Shown here one piece after another: positions 3,042 through 58,616 of a DNA stretch of 64,000 bases. The notes under the pieces are model-generated. The model worked only from the letters and a program-made list of their open reading frames with translations, was not told the DNA's origin and did no database searches. Numbering within the stretch: position 1 is the stretch's first letter; the number at the start of each line of letters is the position of its first letter. Source of the DNA: Saprospiraceae bacterium (GTDB lineage Bacteria > Bacteroidota > Bacteroidia > Chitinophagales > Saprospiraceae); the NCBI GenBank assembly GCA_041746735.1, contig JBGTGP010000051.1:56434-120433 (forward strand), written 5' to 3'. The translations under genes were made by a program, and so were the position numbers.

Positions 3042-3824
3042 TCATGGCTCGATCCGCAGAGTCAGACCGTCATACCCGAGCCGGATTGGATCAGGCAGTC
3101 GTTTCTCTGCCTCAGCGTGAAGCCCCATATCATGGCTGATATGGGTCAGAAAACATCTGGAAGGTTTGAGCATATCACACAGGCTGATCACGTCCTCTAC
3201 ATTCAGGTGGGTGGGGTGAGGCTTGAACCGAAGGCCATTCAGGATCAGTACATCCAGATTCTGCAATAATGACATGCTGGACTCCGGAATAAATTTGGCA
3301 TCGGTGACATACGCCAGACGGCCGATCCTGTATCCCAGCACTGGCATATCACCATGATCGACCGGGATCGGAATGATATGAACATCCCTGAAGGTAAATG
3401 GTGCATGATCAATCGTGACGGCATGTACTTTGGGCTTTCCTGCATAGGTATACAGCGGATCAAAGGCATAATCAAAACGTCGCTTTACCTCCAATAGGGT
3501 CCTTTCGCTTCCCATGACGGGCATATCCCGGTTATAGAGGAAATTGATCGGACGGATGTCGTCAAGGCCTGAGACATGGTCATTGTGTTCATGGGTGAGC
3601 AGGATGCCATGAATATCCAGGATCCGGTTGGCCAGTAATTGTTGCCTAAAATCAGGACCAATGTCAATGGACAATCCGGTATCGCCCGACTTGACATAGG
3701 CAGCGGTTCTCAGTCTTTTATCTTTTGGGTGGTGCGAGGTGCAAACGATACAATGACATCCGATGACCGGGATCCCCTGAGATGTGCCGGTACCCAGTAA
3801 CGTAATATGCAGTTCCGGGTTCAC
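3042..3824 (-). CDS. MBL-fold metallo-hydrolase (PhnP-like)
   Basis: N-terminal LGTGTSQGIPVIGCHCIVC and metal motif THEHNDHVSGLDD (HxHxDH). Confidence 0.8.
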   Translation of the reverse strand: MNPELHITLLGTGTSQGIPVIGCHCIVCTSHHPKDKRLRTAAYVKSGDTGLSIDIGPDFRQQLLANRILDIHGILLTHEHNDHVSGLDDIRPINFLYNRDMPVMGSERTLLEVKRRFDYAFDPLYTYAGKPKVHAVTIDHAPFTFRDVHIIPIPVDHGDMPVLGYRIGRLAYVTDAKFIPESSMSLLQNLDVLILNGLRFKPHPTHLNVEDVISLCDMLKPSRCFLTHISHDMGLHAEAEKRLPDPIRLGYDGLTLRIEP

Positions 3825-6293: not shown

Positions 6294-7784
6294 ATGGAAA
6301 TTTGGCAAATACTCCAGGAGCCCTGGGCGCTCAGGGCGTTAGCCGCCTCGACTATGGTCGGTGTTACTTGTGGGATGTTGGGTACTTTTATTGTGCTTCG
6401 AAATATGTCTCTCATTGGGGATGCCTTATCTCATGCTATTCTACCCGGCGTTGTCGTGGCTTTTGCGATTTTGGGATACAATACCCTGGGGTTTTTCTTT
6501 GGTTCGGTAGCTGCAGGCATCCTCTCGGCTGTCGCCATCACCTGGATCCAACAACATGTGCGGACTAAAAATGATGCAGTTATCGGCATAGTTTTCACAG
6601 CCATGTTTTCCATTGGGGTAATAGGCATTTCTTCCATCTCCAGGACGGGTGTTCATCTGGATCTTAAAGATTTCCTCTTTGGCAATGTGCTTGGCGTGTC
6701 TAACGATGATCTCTGGATGACCGGGATGGTTATGGTGCTGGTGGCGGGAAGTTGTATCATTCTCTTCCGGTATTTATTTGCCTCTACCTTTCAACCCACC
6801 ATAGCCTCCACTATGGGTATTCCCGTGAAAAGTATTCACTATTACCTGATGTTGCTGTTATCCTTTGCTGTGGTGGCCGCCATGCAAACCGTCGGCGTCA
6901 TTCTCGTGGTGGCGATGCTGATCACGCCTGCTTCGACAGCTTTATTGTTAGCTCAAAGGTTATCAAAGGTGGTATGGATTGCGGCTGTCGCGGGTTTTAT
7001 CAGCAGTTTGTCCGGGCTCATCCTGTCCATTCTCTATGAAATGCCTCCTGGTCCTGCAATTGCTGTCATGGCCACCGTACTTTACCTGGTAGCCGCGTTT
7101 TTTTCTCCTCAGCAGGGACTGATCACGCGCTGGCTGCGGAGTCAACAACAAAAGCAAAAAATCCGGCTGGAAGATATTTTGAAAGCGATTTATAAAATCG
7201 AGCTGCATCAACCTGCTGATCTGACGACTCTTGCCGGAAAAATGTCTGTGGCGCTCTCCCGCTTAAAGACGGACGTACAGCACCTTTTGAAAAGGAATCT
7301 ATTGTCGAAAGGTCCGGGGACCACTTTGGTGCTGACAGAACGTGGAAAGGAACAAGCCAACCATCTCATTCGCGCACATCGGCTATGGGAAAGCTACCTG
7401 GTTCATGAAATGGGTATGGACCCTGATCATATACATGATGAAGCCGAACGGTACGAGCATATTTTGTCTGCTGAAGAAATTGATGAAATGGATCATCAAT
7501 TAGGGTATCCCGCTCTTGATCCCCATGGATCTCCCATTCCCAGTAAAGAAACATCTCCGTCGCTGGCACTGGACCGGCTGAGTATTCGGGAGACCGGAAG
7601 GATTGCCCAACGTCAACCCGGAGCGCAGATCGCACACCAGTTATGGGATCTGGGTCTGGGACCCGGAGATGAATTTATTGTTGACCAACTGGATACAGAT
7701 GTCAGAATTCGGGTAAAGGATCAGGTGATCTTCATTCCCGGGGATATGGCCCGTATGATCAGTGTAGAGCGTACGGAGGGATAG
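6294..7784 (+). CDS. metal (Mn/Zn/Fe) ABC transporter permease (ABC-3 family) fused to a full DtxR/MntR-type metalloregulator (HTH + dimerisation + FeoA/SH3-like domain)
   Basis: About 280 aa of polytopic membrane domain resembling ZnuB/MntB/TroD. This is followed by RAHRLWESYLVHEMG..HDEAERYEHILS..LGYPALDPHGSPIP (DtxR dimerisation/metal site) and a C-terminal FeoA-like segment. Confidence 0.75.
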   Translation: MEIWQILQEPWALRALAASTMVGVTCGMLGTFIVLRNMSLIGDALSHAILPGVVVAFAILGYNTLGFFFGSVAAGILSAVAITWIQQHVRTKNDAVIGIVFTAMFSIGVIGISSISRTGVHLDLKDFLFGNVLGVSNDDLWMTGMVMVLVAGSCIILFRYLFASTFQPTIASTMGIPVKSIHYYLMLLLSFAVVAAMQTVGVILVVAMLITPASTALLLAQRLSKVVWIAAVAGFISSLSGLILSILYEMPPGPAIAVMATVLYLVAAFFSPQQGLITRWLRSQQQKQKIRLEDILKAIYKIELHQPADLTTLAGKMSVALSRLKTDVQHLLKRNLLSKGPGTTLVLTERGKEQANHLIRAHRLWESYLVHEMGMDPDHIHDEAERYEHILSAEEIDEMDHQLGYPALDPHGSPIPSKETSPSLALDRLSIRETGRIAQRQPGAQIAHQLWDLGLGPGDEFIVDQLDTDVRIRVKDQVIFIPGDMARMISVERTEG

Positions 7785-39376: not shown

Positions 39377-39438
39377 GGGTAAAGGGTAAAGGGTAAAGTG
39401 GGGAGTGGGGAGTAGGGAGTAGGGAGTGGGGAGTGGGG
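39377..39438 (+). repeat. heptamer microsatellite block 1: (GGGTAAA)3 then (GGGGAGT/AGGGAGT)5 + GGGG
   Basis: Read directly from the sequence. 7-nt period throughout. Confidence 0.95.
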
Positions 39439-39485
39439 TGCTTCGACCCGCTTGACACATCCTCGTGCTACAGCTCAGCAACCGT

Positions 39486-39538
39486 GGGGAGTGGGGAGTA
39501 GTGAGTAGTGAGTGGGGAGTGGGGAGTGGGGAGTGGGG
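39486..39538 (+). repeat. heptamer microsatellite block 2: (GGGGAGT)2 (AGTGAGT)2 (GGGGAGT)3 GGGG
   Basis: Read directly from the sequence. Separated from block 1 by a 47-bp unique spacer. Confidence 0.95.
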
Positions 39539-39547
39539 AATAGTTCT

Positions 39548-40129: not shown

Positions 40130-40266
40130 GGGAGGAAGGTAAGGAGAAGTGGGATGATTGGAAATGGAAAAGGGGTGGGTGGGCGGATGATATTGGATAA
40201 GCTGGTGAAAGGGATTGGAGGGGCGGGTGGTGCTTGGAGGATGAGAATCCGGAAGCAAACTGTCAG

Positions 40267-40790
40267 GACTGATTTCGTCGAAATACGTCGGAAGATGACT
40301 GTGGTTATTAGGTTGTGGGCATTTTCAAAACAACATATTATTGCAATCTAACTTATGTTTGAAGTGACTGATTTCGTCGAAATCCATCGCGAGATAGTTG
40401 ATTTTATTGGGTCGTAGAGGTTTTCAACACAATATATTATTAAATTATTAATATGTTTCATCCGACTGATTTCGTCGAAATCCGTCGCGAGATAGTTGAT
40501 TTTATTGGGCTGTAGAGGTTTTTAACACAATATATTATTAATATTGTTAATATACTTTATCCGACTGATTTCGTCGAAATCCGTCGCGAGATAGTTGATT
40601 TTGTTAGGTTGTAGAGGTTTTTAACACAATATATTATCAATATTATTAATATGTTTCGTCCGACTGATTTCGTCGAAATCCGTCGCGAGATATTTGCTTT
40701 TATTGGGTCGTAGAGGTTCTTAACACCATATATAATTGAAATTTATTATTCATTCAATCCAACGGAGTTCATAGAAATCCCTCAATCAAC
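40267..40790 (+). repeat. Array A: tandem 99-bp repeat, five units plus a decayed sixth
   Basis: Unit starts (GACTGATTTCG...) at 40267, 40366, 40464, 40563 and 40662, with a degenerate copy from 40761. Counted directly from the sequence. Confidence 0.95.
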
Positions 40791-40942: not shown

Positions 40943-40950
40943 TACTTTTG
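40943..40950 (+). promoter_or_regulatory. Bacteroidota-type -7 promoter box TACTTTTG upstream of hmgA
   Basis: Exact match to the TAnnTTTG consensus, 12 nt before ATG 40963. No convincing -33 TTTG seen. Confidence 0.3.
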
Positions 40951-40962
40951 AAGAAAAAAACA

Positions 40963-42126
40963 ATGCCCGTCTACCATACACTCGGATCCATCCCCCAGAA
41001 ACGCCACACGGTATTTGAAAAACCAGCAGGTGGAATCCACTACGAGCAACTTTTTGGTACTATCGGCTTCGACGGAATGTCATCCCTCCTCTACCACCTG
41101 CATCGTCCCACTCAGGTCCGACACATAGGAGAAGCCATAAACGTCATGCCCAAGATCGCAGTCGAACATAATATGACTGCCCGCCTGCTCAAAGGTTTTG
41201 ATATACCCCGCGCCAACGACTGGCTGACGTCCCGCCATCCGCTCCTCATCAATAAAGACATACATGTGGGCCTGGCCGCTCCCACTCAATCCCTGACCGA
41301 ATATTTTTATAAAAATGCCGATGCCGATGAAATGATCTTTGTTCACCGCGGATCGGGCACCCTGCGTACTTTCCTCGGCAATATCCCTTTCGAGTACGGA
41401 GACTATCTGATCATACCCCGCGGCATGATCTACCAGATTGATTTCGATACGGAAGACAATCGCCTGCTCTATGCAGAATCCTTCCACCCGATCTACACGC
41501 CTAAGCGATATCGCAACTGGTTCGGCCAACTCCTCGAACACTCCCCATTTTGTGAACGCGATTACAAACTGCCCCGCGTACTGGAAACCTATGATGAAAA
41601 AGGAGATTTTCTGATCAAAATCAAAAAGCAGGGACAACTTCATCAACTGATCTATGCCACCCATCCTTTTGATGTTGTCGGATGGGACGGCTACAATTTT
41701 CCGTATGGATTTTCCATTCACAACTTTGAACCCATTACCGGACGTGTACACCAACCGCCCCCAGTTCATCAGACCTTTGAGACCAAAGCCTTTGTCGTGT
41801 GCTCTTTCTGCCCGAGACTCTACGATTATCATCCGAAAGCGATCCCGGCACCTTACAACCACAGTAATATTGATTCCGACGAAGTCCTCTACTATGTGGA
41901 TGGCGATTTTATGAGCCGCAACAACATCGCACAAGGCCATATCACGCTCCACCCTGCCGGGATTCCGCATGGACCAGCACCCGGAGCCTACGAAAGAAGC
42001 ATCGGCCAGACCGTAACAGAAGAACTGGCTGTCATGATCGACACCTTTGCACCACTCATGGTCACTGAGCATGCGCTCAAGATTGATGATGGTGTCTACT
42101 TTCAATCCTGGATCGGAGAGGAATAA
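40963..42126 (+). CDS. hmgA: homogentisate 1,2-dioxygenase
   Basis: About 387 aa bacterial short-form HGD with conserved C-terminal HPAGIPHGP region. Clustered with fahA and hppD. ATG 40963 preferred over TTG 40948, which lies inside a TAnnTTTG box. Confidence 0.85.
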   Translation: MPVYHTLGSIPQKRHTVFEKPAGGIHYEQLFGTIGFDGMSSLLYHLHRPTQVRHIGEAINVMPKIAVEHNMTARLLKGFDIPRANDWLTSRHPLLINKDIHVGLAAPTQSLTEYFYKNADADEMIFVHRGSGTLRTFLGNIPFEYGDYLIIPRGMIYQIDFDTEDNRLLYAESFHPIYTPKRYRNWFGQLLEHSPFCERDYKLPRVLETYDEKGDFLIKIKKQGQLHQLIYATHPFDVVGWDGYNFPYGFSIHNFEPITGRVHQPPPVHQTFETKAFVVCSFCPRLYDYHPKAIPAPYNHSNIDSDEVLYYVDGDFMSRNNIAQGHITLHPAGIPHGPAPGAYERSIGQTVTEELAVMIDTFAPLMVTEHALKIDDGVYFQSWIGEE

Positions 42127-55789: not shown

Positions 55790-56806
55790 ATGGGGTCTAA
55801 AGGCAAAATTAAGTGTACAAATGCCAGGTACTTGCTGCTTGCGGTGGTGATGATCTGTTGTGTGCGGATGGAATCCGGGCTGGCGCAGCGGGATACCCTT
55901 GGTTTTTGGGATACGCCCGGGGCTTTCCATAAGGGTCGGTTTTGGGGGGCTGCAGGGACGGGGAGTGTCGCGTTGGGCGGGACCTTGTTTGCGCTGAGTA
56001 CGTTTTGGTATAATGACTATCCGCAAACCTCATTTCACTTTTTTGATGACCGTCGGGAATGGCTTCAAATGGATAAGGCCGGGCATATGTTTACGGCCTA
56101 TTTTCTGTCGGATTGGAGTTATTATGGGGCGCGATGGACGGGCATGTCGCGCAGTTCTTCGATCTGGGCGGGGATGTTTTCGGCATTTGGGATACAGGGG
56201 TCGCTGGAGGTACTAGATGGGTTTTCGTCGGGATGGGGATTTTCATGGTTTGATATTGGGGCCAATCTGGCGGGGAGTGCTTTGTGGGGTGTACAGCAGG
56301 CTTCGTGGGATGAGCAGCGGATACGGATGAAAGTTTCGGGTACCTATCGCCGGTATCCGAATGAGATAGTTACGGGTATACCGGGTGGAAGTAATACACT
56401 GGCAATGCGGGCAAAGGACTTGTATGGGTCTGGTATTTTGCAGACGTTTCTGAAGGATTACAATGCACAAACAATATGGATATCGGTCAATATCGGTTCG
56501 TTTTTGGGTGAGAGTCAGCGCTTTCCGGGGTGGCTCAATTTGGCTGTTGGGTATGGGGCTGAGAATATGTTTGGTGGTATAGAAAACAAGTGGGAGGCTC
56601 AAGGCAACAAGTATGAGGTTTCGGGGGAATTGTATCCTCGCTATCGGCAGTGGTATTTATCGCCGGATGTGGATTTGAGTCGTATACGGGTCAAGAGTCG
56701 GCCTTTTCGTATGGTGTTGGGGATGTTGAATGTGTTTAAGTTGCCTGCTCCGGCGTTGGAGATTCGGGGACGGGGGGGTGTGAGGTGGAGGTGGTTGCAT
56801 TATTAG
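55790..56806 (+). CDS. DUF2279-like (YfiM-like) membrane/periplasmic protein
   Basis: DKAGHMFTAYF and a G/W-rich pattern, as remembered for DUF2279. The family assignment is tentative. Confidence 0.45.
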   Translation: MGSKGKIKCTNARYLLLAVVMICCVRMESGLAQRDTLGFWDTPGAFHKGRFWGAAGTGSVALGGTLFALSTFWYNDYPQTSFHFFDDRREWLQMDKAGHMFTAYFLSDWSYYGARWTGMSRSSSIWAGMFSAFGIQGSLEVLDGFSSGWGFSWFDIGANLAGSALWGVQQASWDEQRIRMKVSGTYRRYPNEIVTGIPGGSNTLAMRAKDLYGSGILQTFLKDYNAQTIWISVNIGSFLGESQRFPGWLNLAVGYGAENMFGGIENKWEAQGNKYEVSGELYPRYRQWYLSPDVDLSRIRVKSRPFRMVLGMLNVFKLPAPALEIRGRGGVRWRWLHY

Positions 56807-56822
56807 GTTGAGGGTTTGCAAG

Positions 56823-57430
56823 GGACGGATTTCGACTCAAAAACACATGTAGGATTTTAATAATACGTTGTTTCGCAAATGGCTATAGCCCAATAACAAC
56901 AGGCATCCAGCGACGGATTTCGACGAAATCAGTCCAAGAGAACATATTAAATGTTTCAATAATACGTTATTCTGAAAATGGCTACAGCCCAATATCCACA
57001 GCCAACCAGCGACGGATTTCGACGAAATCAGTCGGAGAGAACATATTATATATTTAAATAATACGTTGCTTTAAAAATGGCTACAGCCCAATATCCACAG
57101 CCAACCAGCGACGGATTTCGACGAAATCAGTCCAAGAGAACATATTAAATGTTTCAATAATACGTTATTCTGAAAATGGCTACAGCCCAATAACCACAGC
57201 CATCCAGCGACGGATTTCGACGAAATCAGTCGGAGAGAACATATTATATATTTAAATAATACGTTGCTTTAAAAATGGCTACAGCCCAATAACCACAGCC
57301 ATCCAGCGACGGATTTCGACGAAATCAGCCGGGTCAAACATTCCAGAAAAACCAACAATTTCTACCCTGAAAATCCTCCACATCCCAATAATACCAACCA
57401 AACCCCGGCGTATTGCGCCGAAATCAGCCC
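56823..57430 (-). repeat. Array B: the same 99-bp repeat family in inverted orientation, four intact units flanked by decayed ones
   Basis: CGACGGATTTCGACGAAATCAG at 56911, 57010, 57109, 57208 and 57307, exactly 99-bp phase. Decayed copies at 56823 and 57406. The core is the exact reverse complement of the array A core. Confidence 0.95.
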
Positions 57431-57476
57431 AAGCCATCATACCCCACCATACTCCTATTGAAACCGCCGAAAACCC

Positions 57477-58616
57477 CTACTCCCCTATTCCCAACCACGA
57501 CTTCACCGCACCTACCAACTGCTTCTGGATATTTGGATTCGCTCCAACCGCCAATATTACCGATATCAGCAAACCAATCAACGCCGACCCCACATCTTTT
57601 AGAATAATCCGTAGGGCCTTAAACTTATGCGTATATCCCGTCTTGATCCGCGAAAGACTGATCGCAATCTCCCGCCCACCAATCACACCCAAAAAGACCC
57701 ACGTCGTACTCATCGGGACCGTACTGATAAACAATTTATAAATCAACATCACCACATAACTGAAGTCAATCAGCGTCGCCGCCCGAACATCCGATATACG
57801 GGACTTCTCACTCACAATCCGTTGGATCTTATCTCCCTTGAGGTACAACAATAAGCCTAACCCAAAAAAGATCGTCCCCCCGAAGATGAGAAACTGAAGC
57901 GTATCCAACCGCCGCGGTAAAAAAACCGCCACATTGGCCCCATCCTGCATCACCCAGACCGACCACAAACACCCGCTGACGATCCACTGGATCACCGTCC
58001 AGGCAGGATTGGTCTTTCGCTGGCTAAAATATTTTTTAATCAGATTGTACCCCAGATACCAGATCAGAAAGGAAACCATAAACGCCAACCCATATCCCGA
58101 AAGACTCTTGCCAATGATGGACGTAATCCCCGTTGCATCCACACTAAACACACTCAACATCAAAAATGTCGTCGATACCGGCATCCGCAGCCGCGTCAGA
58201 ACCAACAAAACGATAGGCGCAATAATCTGGAAAAAACTGAACTCCTCCGGGTGAGGATACTTGGTGACCCCCTCATCATTCAGTAATCGCTGGTACGTCA
58301 CATCACCATCATAGTAAAACCAACTAAACGTGACGGTGATCAAAAAAATACCCCCAATAAACAGCCACATTATCCACCACTTCCTCTTTTTGTTGCTTTC
58401 AATAAATGTCCCCAGGGATTGAATACTGTCATTGGCCACTGTCGAATACGCCGCAAATAAAAATCCCACCCACATCGCCGACCGGCCAAAATAGACCATC
58501 ACAGATGCCAGCAATGCTCCCGTCAGTACAATCAGTAAAAATGTCCGCTCGGTCACCAGGTAATCCAGAACGTTGAGCGGCCGGTTGGCCCGGGGTGCTT
58601 TCCTTAGCTTGGACAT
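57477..58616 (-). CDS. polytopic membrane protein, distant PiT/PHO4 (inorganic phosphate transporter)-like
   Basis: Duplicated PiT-like signatures: VANDSIQSLGT and QDGANVAVF (GANDVAN-like), PVSTTF and PMSTTW..GVIGG (PVSTTH..G-like). Confidence 0.45.
   Translation of the reverse strand: MSKLRKAPRANRPLNVLDYLVTERTFLLIVLTGALLASVMVYFGRSAMWVGFLFAAYSTVANDSIQSLGTFIESNKKRKWWIMWLFIGGIFLITVTFSWFYYDGDVTYQRLLNDEGVTKYPHPEEFSFFQIIAPIVLLVLTRLRMPVSTTFLMLSVFSVDATGITSIIGKSLSGYGLAFMVSFLIWYLGYNLIKKYFSQRKTNPAWTVIQWIVSGCLWSVWVMQDGANVAVFLPRRLDTLQFLIFGGTIFFGLGLLLYLKGDKIQRIVSEKSRISDVRAATLIDFSYVVMLIYKLFISTVPMSTTWVFLGVIGGREIAISLSRIKTGYTHKFKALRIILKDVGSALIGLLISVILAVGANPNIQKQLVGAVKSWLGIGE

Follow-up and report, generated by a model that had tools for sequence, protein, structure and literature searches.

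The MIRU-type variable-number tandem repeats (VNTRs) of Mycobacterium tuberculosis are intergenic tandem repeats of 46-101 bp, and the REP/BIME sequences and REPINs of enterobacteria are clustered intergenic imperfect palindromes that are mobilised by RAYT transposases. The SIB/QUAD (ibs-sib) and LDR (ldr-rdl) repeats of Escherichia coli are type I toxin-antitoxin loci, whose units of 140-530 bp have their own promoter and an antisense RNA and specify hydrophobic membrane toxins. The present analysis concerns two arrays, A and B, of a 99-bp tandem repeat found in a stretch of 64,000 nucleotides (the window) from a Saprospiraceae bacterium (GenBank assembly GCA_041746735.1, contig JBGTGP010000051.1, positions 56,434 to 120,433). 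Array B separates the gene of a DUF2279 lipoprotein from that of a permease-like membrane protein, and array A lies between tag and hmgA. On balance, we consider that the two arrays probably constitute a non-coding intergenic minisatellite restricted to the present lineage, in which mis-aligned recombination acts on a unit carrying a constrained, hairpin-forming core.

The class of the repeat follows from its arrangement and from its mode of divergence. The units are direct and head-to-tail, lie outside coding sequence (in the DUF2279/permease and tag/hmgA intervals), and have a period of 99, with 4.8-6.9 copies in array B. They also behave as sequences that evolve in concert: the mean identity is 89.5/99 within the centre of array B and 84.7/99 within that of array A, against 71.1/99 between the arrays, and the edge units are more diverged. 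Like the MIRU-type repeats, they form direct intergenic chromosomal arrays of similar unit size at several loci, with small open reading frames (ORFs) that touch the ends of flanking genes, and they would likewise evolve by slippage or unequal exchange; here a unit supplies the stop codon of the permease gene. There is, however, no sequence relation to MIRU, two loci only were seen here, and the prominent 27-nt palindrome is not a MIRU feature. With the REP/BIME elements the repeat shares an imperfect palindrome that has a conserved mismatch and is itself the constrained element (it is invariant in 8 units), an intergenic location, often between convergent genes, and tandem clusters with a period of about 100 bp. 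REPs nevertheless alternate in orientation within a BIME, whereas the present cores are all direct at 99-bp spacing, and REPs number hundreds per genome, against 2 arrays in about 84 kb here. The window holds no RAYT/IS200-like gene, and no Y1-transposase domain was seen in it. Its ORFs were scanned for domains down to 150 aa in 1-37 kb and down to 80 aa in 37-64 kb (19 non-nested ORFs); across the 64 kb, genes for cas functions, transposases, recombinases, partition or peptide maturation are absent.

The SIB and LDR repeats resemble the present ones as direct intergenic repeats at several loci, each with an ORF of about 18-35 codons; the present units differ in measuring 99 bp, in having no detected promoter, and in a peptide with a charged centre and 8 hydrophobic C-terminal residues. 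The stem-loop-containing bacterial repeat families (PMC2267715) are described as mostly dispersed single copies, whereas the present repeat forms homogenised tandem arrays with a dimeric higher-order unit. Within the Saprospiraceae, the related metagenome-assembled genome GCA_035654115.1 contains a 95-bp array (locus L097, 12313-12631; locus L098, 12313-12539, downstream of a PHO4 transporter gene) that is alike in its near-equal period, in its hairpin GTTCGAG…CTCGAAC (-9.3 kcal/mol as DNA) and in its intergenic position beside a transporter gene. It has no detectable sequence homology to the 99-bp family, so that common descent was rejected, and its small ORF is not maintained. Two assemblies of the same species differ in the number of its copies (JGI, 3.4; NCBI, 2.4), which indicates that such arrays arise repeatedly and vary in copy number in Saprospiraceae.

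For array B, the initial annotation had placed cores in exact 99-bp phase between decayed copies at 56823 (88 bp) and 57406, and had the array begin 17 nt after the stop of the DUF2279-like gene; all of these features are recovered. The + strand carries exact copies of the 22-mer CGACGGATTTCGACGAAATCAG at 56911, 57010, 57109, 57208 and 57307, dinucleotide shuffles give 0 occurrences, and Tandem Repeats Finder, applied to the whole window, reports for 56854-57328 both a 99-bp period (4.8 copies, 89% matches) and a 198-bp period (2.4 copies, 94% matches). The decayed core at 56823 reads GGACGGATTTCGAC and is followed by the 11-nt deletion that produces the 88-bp spacing, and the unit to which it belongs is identical to the central units at 58-61/99 positions in register. 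The decayed copy at 57406 reads CGGCGTATTGCGCCGAAATCAG, and the outermost decayed unit gives a match to the unit profile at 57369-57437 (nhmmer, E = 1e-6). The DUF2279 ORF ends at 56806, and the first decayed core begins at 56823, as described; the right end of the array, set previously at 57430, had to be moved to about 57492, within the 3' end of the neighbouring gene (Table 1). Neither this reach into the next gene, nor the near-palindrome, nor the 20-codon ORF on the opposite strand had been mentioned.

Table 1. Positions, in window coordinates, of the two arrays, their parts and the genes beside array B
Feature	Coordinates	Strand	Remarks
Array B, whole	56812..57492	- (unit orientation chosen)	About 6.9 units of 99 nt; from Tandem Repeats Finder, repeat families, unit alignment, register table and nhmmer profile matches
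Array B, homogenised centre (units 1-4 in the phase of the initial annotation)	56911..57306	+	Two 198-bp dimers: a-T1, b-T1, a-T2, b-T2
Array B, left edge unit	56823..56910	+	Core truncated by 11-nt deletion, body diverged, ancestral tail state
Array B, right edge unit	57307..57405	+	Exact core, then decayed C-rich body; 58-63/99 identity
Array B, outermost decayed unit and partial unit	57406..57492	+	Overlaps last codons and stop of the permease-like gene
Near-palindromic core, example	57009..57035	.	GCGACGGATTTCGACGAAATCAGTCGG; 12-nt arms, one central base, one conserved mismatch
Array A	40267..40786	+ (opposite to array B)	Same family, 5 units and a decayed sixth, between divergent tag and hmgA
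Five in-phase 20-codon ORFs of array B	56883..57341	-	Starts 57341, 57242, 57143, 57044, 56945; MF[SD][WP][TA]DFVEIRRW[ML][AP]V[VD]IGL, then stop
ORFs of array A	40355..40713	+	MFEVTDFVEIHREIVDFIGS, then stop; MFHPTDFVEIRREIVDFIGL, then stop; a third with ATG mutated to ATA; MFRPTDFVEIRREIFAFIGS, then stop
DUF2279 lipoprotein gene	55790..56806	+	Pfam PF10043; flanks array B on the left and converges on the permease gene
Conserved Bacteroidota membrane protein, 379 aa	57477..58616	-	'Phosphate/sulfate permease' in UniRef names; 3' end overlapped by array B

The variants carried by units 1-4 of array B give the clearest view of its history. Exactly 11 columns vary among these units: nine (unit positions 25, 26, 40, 43, 47, 59, 60, 62 and 64) alternate a-b-a-b along the array, and two (positions 85 and 95) set units 1+2 against units 3+4. 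Body and tail variants segregate differently, as had been claimed, since all four gametes of body and tail are found among the aligned units. The proposed 198-bp higher-order unit is borne out in the array as assembled, dimers 1 and 2 being identical at 194 of 198 positions (the 4 differences are the two tail sites in each half), against 88-90/99 for neighbouring 99-mers of the centre. A simple 198-bp duplication, whatever its phase, does not yield the order a-T1, b-T1, a-T2, b-T2. At least one further exchange, either a short conversion tract or a second unequal crossover, is needed to bring the two-site tail variant into two neighbouring units whose bodies differ, and this lends support to the earlier suggestion of a recent 198-bp duplication combined with conversion or unequal crossover. 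The tail state A..T of units 3 and 4 is found also in the decayed left unit of array B and in the oldest unit of array A; it is therefore taken as ancestral, and the T..A of units 1 and 2 as derived.

The model that we propose divides the 99-bp unit into a near-palindromic core of 27 nt and an AT-rich body of 72 nt, and relies on mis-aligned homologous exchange between units, which would comprise unequal crossover, replication slippage and short-tract gene conversion. Such exchange would homogenise the centre of an array and leave old, diverged units at its edges. The latest amplification in array B would have been that of the 198-bp dimer, after which the two-site tail variant would have moved between neighbouring units. 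The core would most likely work by folding into a hairpin, in DNA or in RNA, or by binding a putative dimeric protein, and its hairpin potential could itself favour slipped mispairing between the direct repeats that flank it. Concerted evolution by unequal crossover and conversion fits both arrays and is, as far as can be judged from their sequences, well supported: the pattern can be read directly from the units, and the process would account for it. The homogenised centre and the decayed edges, noted initially for array B, are indeed found in both arrays, with decayed units at all four edges. The central units are identical to one another at 81-97/99 positions, and edge units to the central units of their own array at 54-84/99; for array B, unit B57440 gives 54-60/99 and unit B56945 gives 79-84/99.

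Could the order of the variants have been created by the assembler rather than by recombination? The array would then be real, but its mosaic order or copy number would reflect units collapsed or expanded during assembly, or co-existing strains joined into a chimera. The only other assembly reached, the Logan contigs of SRR28170463, shows 0 mismatches over 11-21 kb, and thus comes from the same strain and probably from the same reads. Built with k = 31, it cannot cross array B: it stops at the first and last exact cores (56933, resuming at 57299) and is silent on copy number and order. By reasoning, moreover, a path that takes each variant junction once can be no shorter than the assembled order. 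On the same kind of reasoning, however, each 127-nt window across the assembled array is unique, so that longer k-mers or paired reads can resolve it; the 157.5-kb source contig spans both arrays and a heptamer repeat, and array A has independently the same 99-bp architecture. We consequently regard an assembly artefact as unlikely.

Array A, to which the initial annotation alluded in calling array B the same repeat family in inverted orientation, confirms this relationship. Its cores are on the - strand, 3 of them exact (near-palindromes at 40460-40486, 40559-40585 and 40658-40684) and 2 with one mismatch, and all 13 units of the two arrays align as one family (MAFFT). The 5'-most unit of array A is nearer to the consensus of array B (69/99) than to that of its own array (62/99). 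The two sites are unrelated intergenic positions, 16 kb apart, with the arrays in opposite orientations. No homology was found between the flanks of A and B, whose local alignment scores fall inside the shuffle range, and a segmental duplication is therefore excluded as the origin of the two arrays. The splitting of one ancestral array by a 16-kb inversion is excluded in turn, because relatives devoid of the repeat keep the permease/DUF2279 junction, which is ancestral in them. On the unit strand, each array is preceded by a purine- and G-rich stretch, about 130-150 nt long (40131-40262 and 57330-57476); the two stretches cannot be aligned with each other, and that of array B is a decayed unit.

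The core is the only part of the unit for which sequence constraint is shown, and its role can be proposed from the sequence only as a prediction. It forms a 12-1-12 near-palindrome, CGAC-T-GATTTCG-T-CGAAATC-C-GTCG, whose mismatch is identical in every unit; besides the copy listed in Table 1, the cores of array B start at 56910, 57108, 57207 and 57306 (+), and the 22-mer is exact in eight units across both arrays. When the consensus sequences of A and B are compared, the core is identical at 27/27 positions and the other positions at 48/72 (67%; P ~1.8e-5), which designates the core as the constrained part. As single-stranded DNA, it is predicted to fold back on itself with an energy of -6.6 to -7.9 kcal/mol (z between -3.0 and -3.5), and this hairpin is predicted on both strands. 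A miniature inverted-repeat transposable element was also envisaged and discarded, whole palindromes being found at the start of A and the end of B and no target-site duplication being visible. The perfect conservation of the core, in arrays that differ at one in three of the remaining positions, may have functional meaning: it implies that a protein binds the core, that the core serves a structural purpose, or else that conversion is biased.

Comparison with relatives shows that array B arose in the present lineage, by insertion or by expansion. Relatives whose permease is 77-82% identical keep the convergent permease/DUF2279 junction without the repeat, with a 130-nt gap at one locus (L103) and overlapping genes at another (L102); there is no trace of the array repeat at L102 or L103, and it is also absent from the relatives L100 and L101. 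The repeat has also modified the end of the permease-like gene. Its product terminates in ..KSWLGIGE, instead of the ..(S/N)(W/L)F of about 120 homologues; its stop at 57477 falls exactly in the 99-nt register set by the TAG codons of the units, and the sequence after this stop, GGGTTTTCGG, resembles the CCATTTTCAG of the unit. From this sequence likeness, we deduce that the last codons and the stop of the permease gene (57477-57495) are derived from the repeat, the array having rewritten a conserved C-terminus and stop, which makes a small example of repeat-driven turnover of a gene end. The nearest homologues of the DUF2279 protein are labelled Saprospiraceae and are at most 62% identical; an identical protein is encoded on the 157.5-kb source contig and in the Logan assembly of SRR28170463.

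Outside the window, the repeat family was found nowhere among the collections searched. The exact core 18-mer gives 90 single matches in 185,579 species genomes (one per species), mostly intragenic and none extending past the core, and 1 chance match in viral contigs; the exact core 20-mer gives 0 matches in JGI metagenome contigs. The nhmmer profile of the 99-nt unit detects only arrays A and B in the window and in all 105 fetched loci, blastn against plasmids and phages finds no match, and literature searches returned nothing on such arrays in Saprospiraceae. Judged by sequence similarity, the arrays are thus outside the membership of any known family. The same-strain Logan pieces measure 95.5, 16.3 and 42.7 kb, and only the heptamer repeat at 39.4 kb and the two arrays seem to break the k = 31 assembly. 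These piece sizes suggest that the source contig of about 157.5 kb, whose sequence itself was not read, has no further arrays. On this basis, the family seems to have few copies, at least in this part of the genome. Separately, a solo near-palindrome, GGACGGATTTTGTCGAAATTCGTCGCCTGATGCC, is present at L094 1050-1094 (JGI Ga0105100_10140059), in a GC-rich divergent promoter region beside a gene for a Tat-signal lipoprotein, and this site fits the core and 10 nt beyond it better than the search pattern demanded; it is probably due to chance, and could be an operator of the same type.

Two of the other explanations assign a product to the repeat. On the strand opposite to the core as first described, each unit reads as an ATG, 19 codons, a TAG and a 36-nt AT-rich spacer, and the peptides follow the pattern MFS[WP]TDFVEIRRW[ML]AV[VD]IGL in array B and MF[EHR][VP]TDFVEIRREIVDFIG[LS] in array A. 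The arrays might then be tandem micro-protein genes, their 20-aa peptides (MFSPTDFVEIRRW…) being translated from a polycistronic RNA; a conserved N-terminal half, MFxxTDFVEIRR, would be joined to a variable hydrophobic C-terminal half (WMAVVIGL, WLAVDIGL, EIVDFIGL), in a layout that resembles a leader-plus-core precursor or a pheromone-type peptide. In both arrays the ATG, the 20 codons and the TAG are kept in register (8 of the 10 core-bearing units), the decayed units retain I-R-R and P-T through synonymous changes, and the upstream spacer is AT-rich with an A at -3, which is typical of Bacteroidota start sites. The ORFs of array B are moreover co-directional with the permease gene and directly downstream of it, and those of array A are co-directional with hmgA.

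The mode of substitution argues otherwise. The ratio of non-synonymous to synonymous differences (pN/pS, Nei-Gojobori) shows no consistent deficit in the ORF frame in comparison with two control frames and reaches 1.65 between A and B, and all three polymorphisms inside the ORFs of array B are non-synonymous. The nine core codons contain zero synonymous differences between the arrays, which indicates that it is the nucleotide sequence that is constrained. When tandem units are shuffled, 52-62% of them still contain an ATG ORF of 20 codons or more by chance, and in 11-30% of random trials the layout of the ORF outlasts a divergence equal to that observed. The peptides, too short and too charged for a membrane toxin, have no Pfam or NCBIfam match; their exact sequences are absent from a collection of 15 billion proteins, except for a 65-aa run-on ORF called in the source contig, and a word-index protein search with them gives no match. 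A phmmer search of 1.84 billion representatives with the 53-aa fused ORF returned two chance matches only, one to a protein with Sel1 repeats and the other to a repeat surface protein. The codon-degenerate pattern M-x3-TDFVEIRR has 0 matches in viral contigs and 3 in JGI metagenomes, about the number that we estimated from its degeneracy, this chance level being our own estimate with no shuffle control. No gene for a maturation enzyme or an exporter is common to the two sites. The absence of a purifying selection signal and of a family likewise sets the units apart from tandem micro-ORFs or type I toxin repeats. Decay of a 33-residue repeat protein (99 = 3 x 33) was excluded by the same in-frame stops in every unit of both arrays. 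Translation of the peptides is accordingly improbable in our opinion, and the 20-codon ORF is most likely, on all these grounds, a by-product of the unit sequence. If the peptides were nevertheless made, they would form a new Bacteroidota peptide family, in which crossover and conversion within the arrays would be the engine diversifying the 8-residue hydrophobic C-terminus.

It is distinctly doubtful, on the evidence of predicted folds and promoter motifs, that the arrays are tandem genes of small RNAs, or yield a processed repeat transcript with one RNA of about 75-99 nt per unit, the core hairpin lying 5' and, in array B, a U-run after a hairpin of terminator type. The b-type units do score as terminator-like on their - strand (UGGCUGUGG…CUGUAGCCA, then UUUUU), the core hairpin, as said, is predicted on both strands, and a near -7 box, TATTATTG, stands 11 nt before each ATG. 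Whole-unit folds on the ORF strand are, however, no more stable than those of shuffles (z = -0.3 to -1.1, the overall range of whole-unit RNA folds being -0.3 to -2.3), array A does not conserve the second hairpin found in the units of array B, and the core, invariant in intact units, offers no variation for covariation. The units contain no canonical Bacteroidota -33/-7 promoter, and promoters in each unit were rejected for want of a canonical -7 box. Rfam, including its CRISPR direct-repeat models, gives nothing at gathering thresholds and, at relaxed thresholds (E = 1), only one match of E = 0.87.

Plasmid centromeres such as sopC of the F plasmid are composed of tandem units that each hold an inverted repeat. 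It is nonetheless scarcely credible that the present repeats are a CRISPR-like array, whether degenerate or orphan, or that they serve a mobile element as its centromere- or iteron-like array: the arrays begin and end with a palindromic repeat and the core has the length of a CRISPR repeat, but the 72-nt 'spacers' are homologous to one another, between the arrays as well (67-97% overall; 88-97% within B, about 67% against A), no Cas domain occurs in the scanned ORFs, no cas, par or rep gene in the 64 kb, and the arrays are part of a syntenic block of housekeeping chromosomal genes with no plasmid or phage similarity.

The minisatellite interpretation has its own difficulties. Biased conversion, rather than selection, could keep the core identical, and the protein partner of the core is putative. 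A whole palindrome stands at the start of array A and at the end of array B, which speaks against its being a junction of transposon ends. The scale of the family rests on about 84 kb read directly (the window and about 20 kb of loci L093 and L105), with just two arrays. Arrays A and B have in common their start codon, stop codon and 63-nt frame, and the TDFVEIRR segment of two decayed units is enriched in changes that are synonymous or conservative (7 of 13 changes synonymous; P ~0.02, post hoc, by our own count). On these last two counts, peptide coding keeps a small probability.

As a minisatellite, the 99-bp family would offer a compact bacterial case of features of eukaryotic satellites, namely a dimeric higher-order repeat, a homogenised centre, decayed edges and conversion mosaics. 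Its arrays are assembly breakpoints, and would suit strain typing by VNTR in this uncultured Saprospiraceae lineage.

The large ORFs of the window are all ordinary chromosomal genes: metG, tag, hmgA-fahA-hppD, transporters, porP of the type IX secretion system, recG, uvrC, fumarase, methylmalonyl-CoA mutase and others. The gene order around the arrays is conserved in relatives, and the region is consequently not an island. A canonical Bacteroidota -7 box, TACTTTTG, is located at 40943 (40943-40966), 13 nt before the ATG of hmgA and downstream of array A, so that the hmgA promoter is independent of the array.

Heptamer micro-arrays, GGGTAAA x3, AGTGGGG x6 and GTGGGGA x8, occupy 39377-39539, just 3' of metG, and the same-strain k = 31 Logan contig appears to end there. 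Similar heptamers (TAGTGAG, GTGAGAG) lie directly 3' of the DUF2279 stop of a relative (L097, 11015-11100), and GTAAGACA is repeated x16 at L097 5535-5660; runs of G-rich heptamers may be general in the intergenic regions of Saprospiraceae. A single ORF at 6294-7784 encodes an ABC-3 metal-transporter permease together with a FeoA domain and the C-terminal metal-binding domain of a DtxR-type iron-dependent repressor. For the metallo-beta-lactamase-fold protein at 3042-3824 (-), the Logan annotation of the same gene lists PF23023 (Anti-Pycsar Apyc1), and our own Pfam scan only Lactamase_B families.

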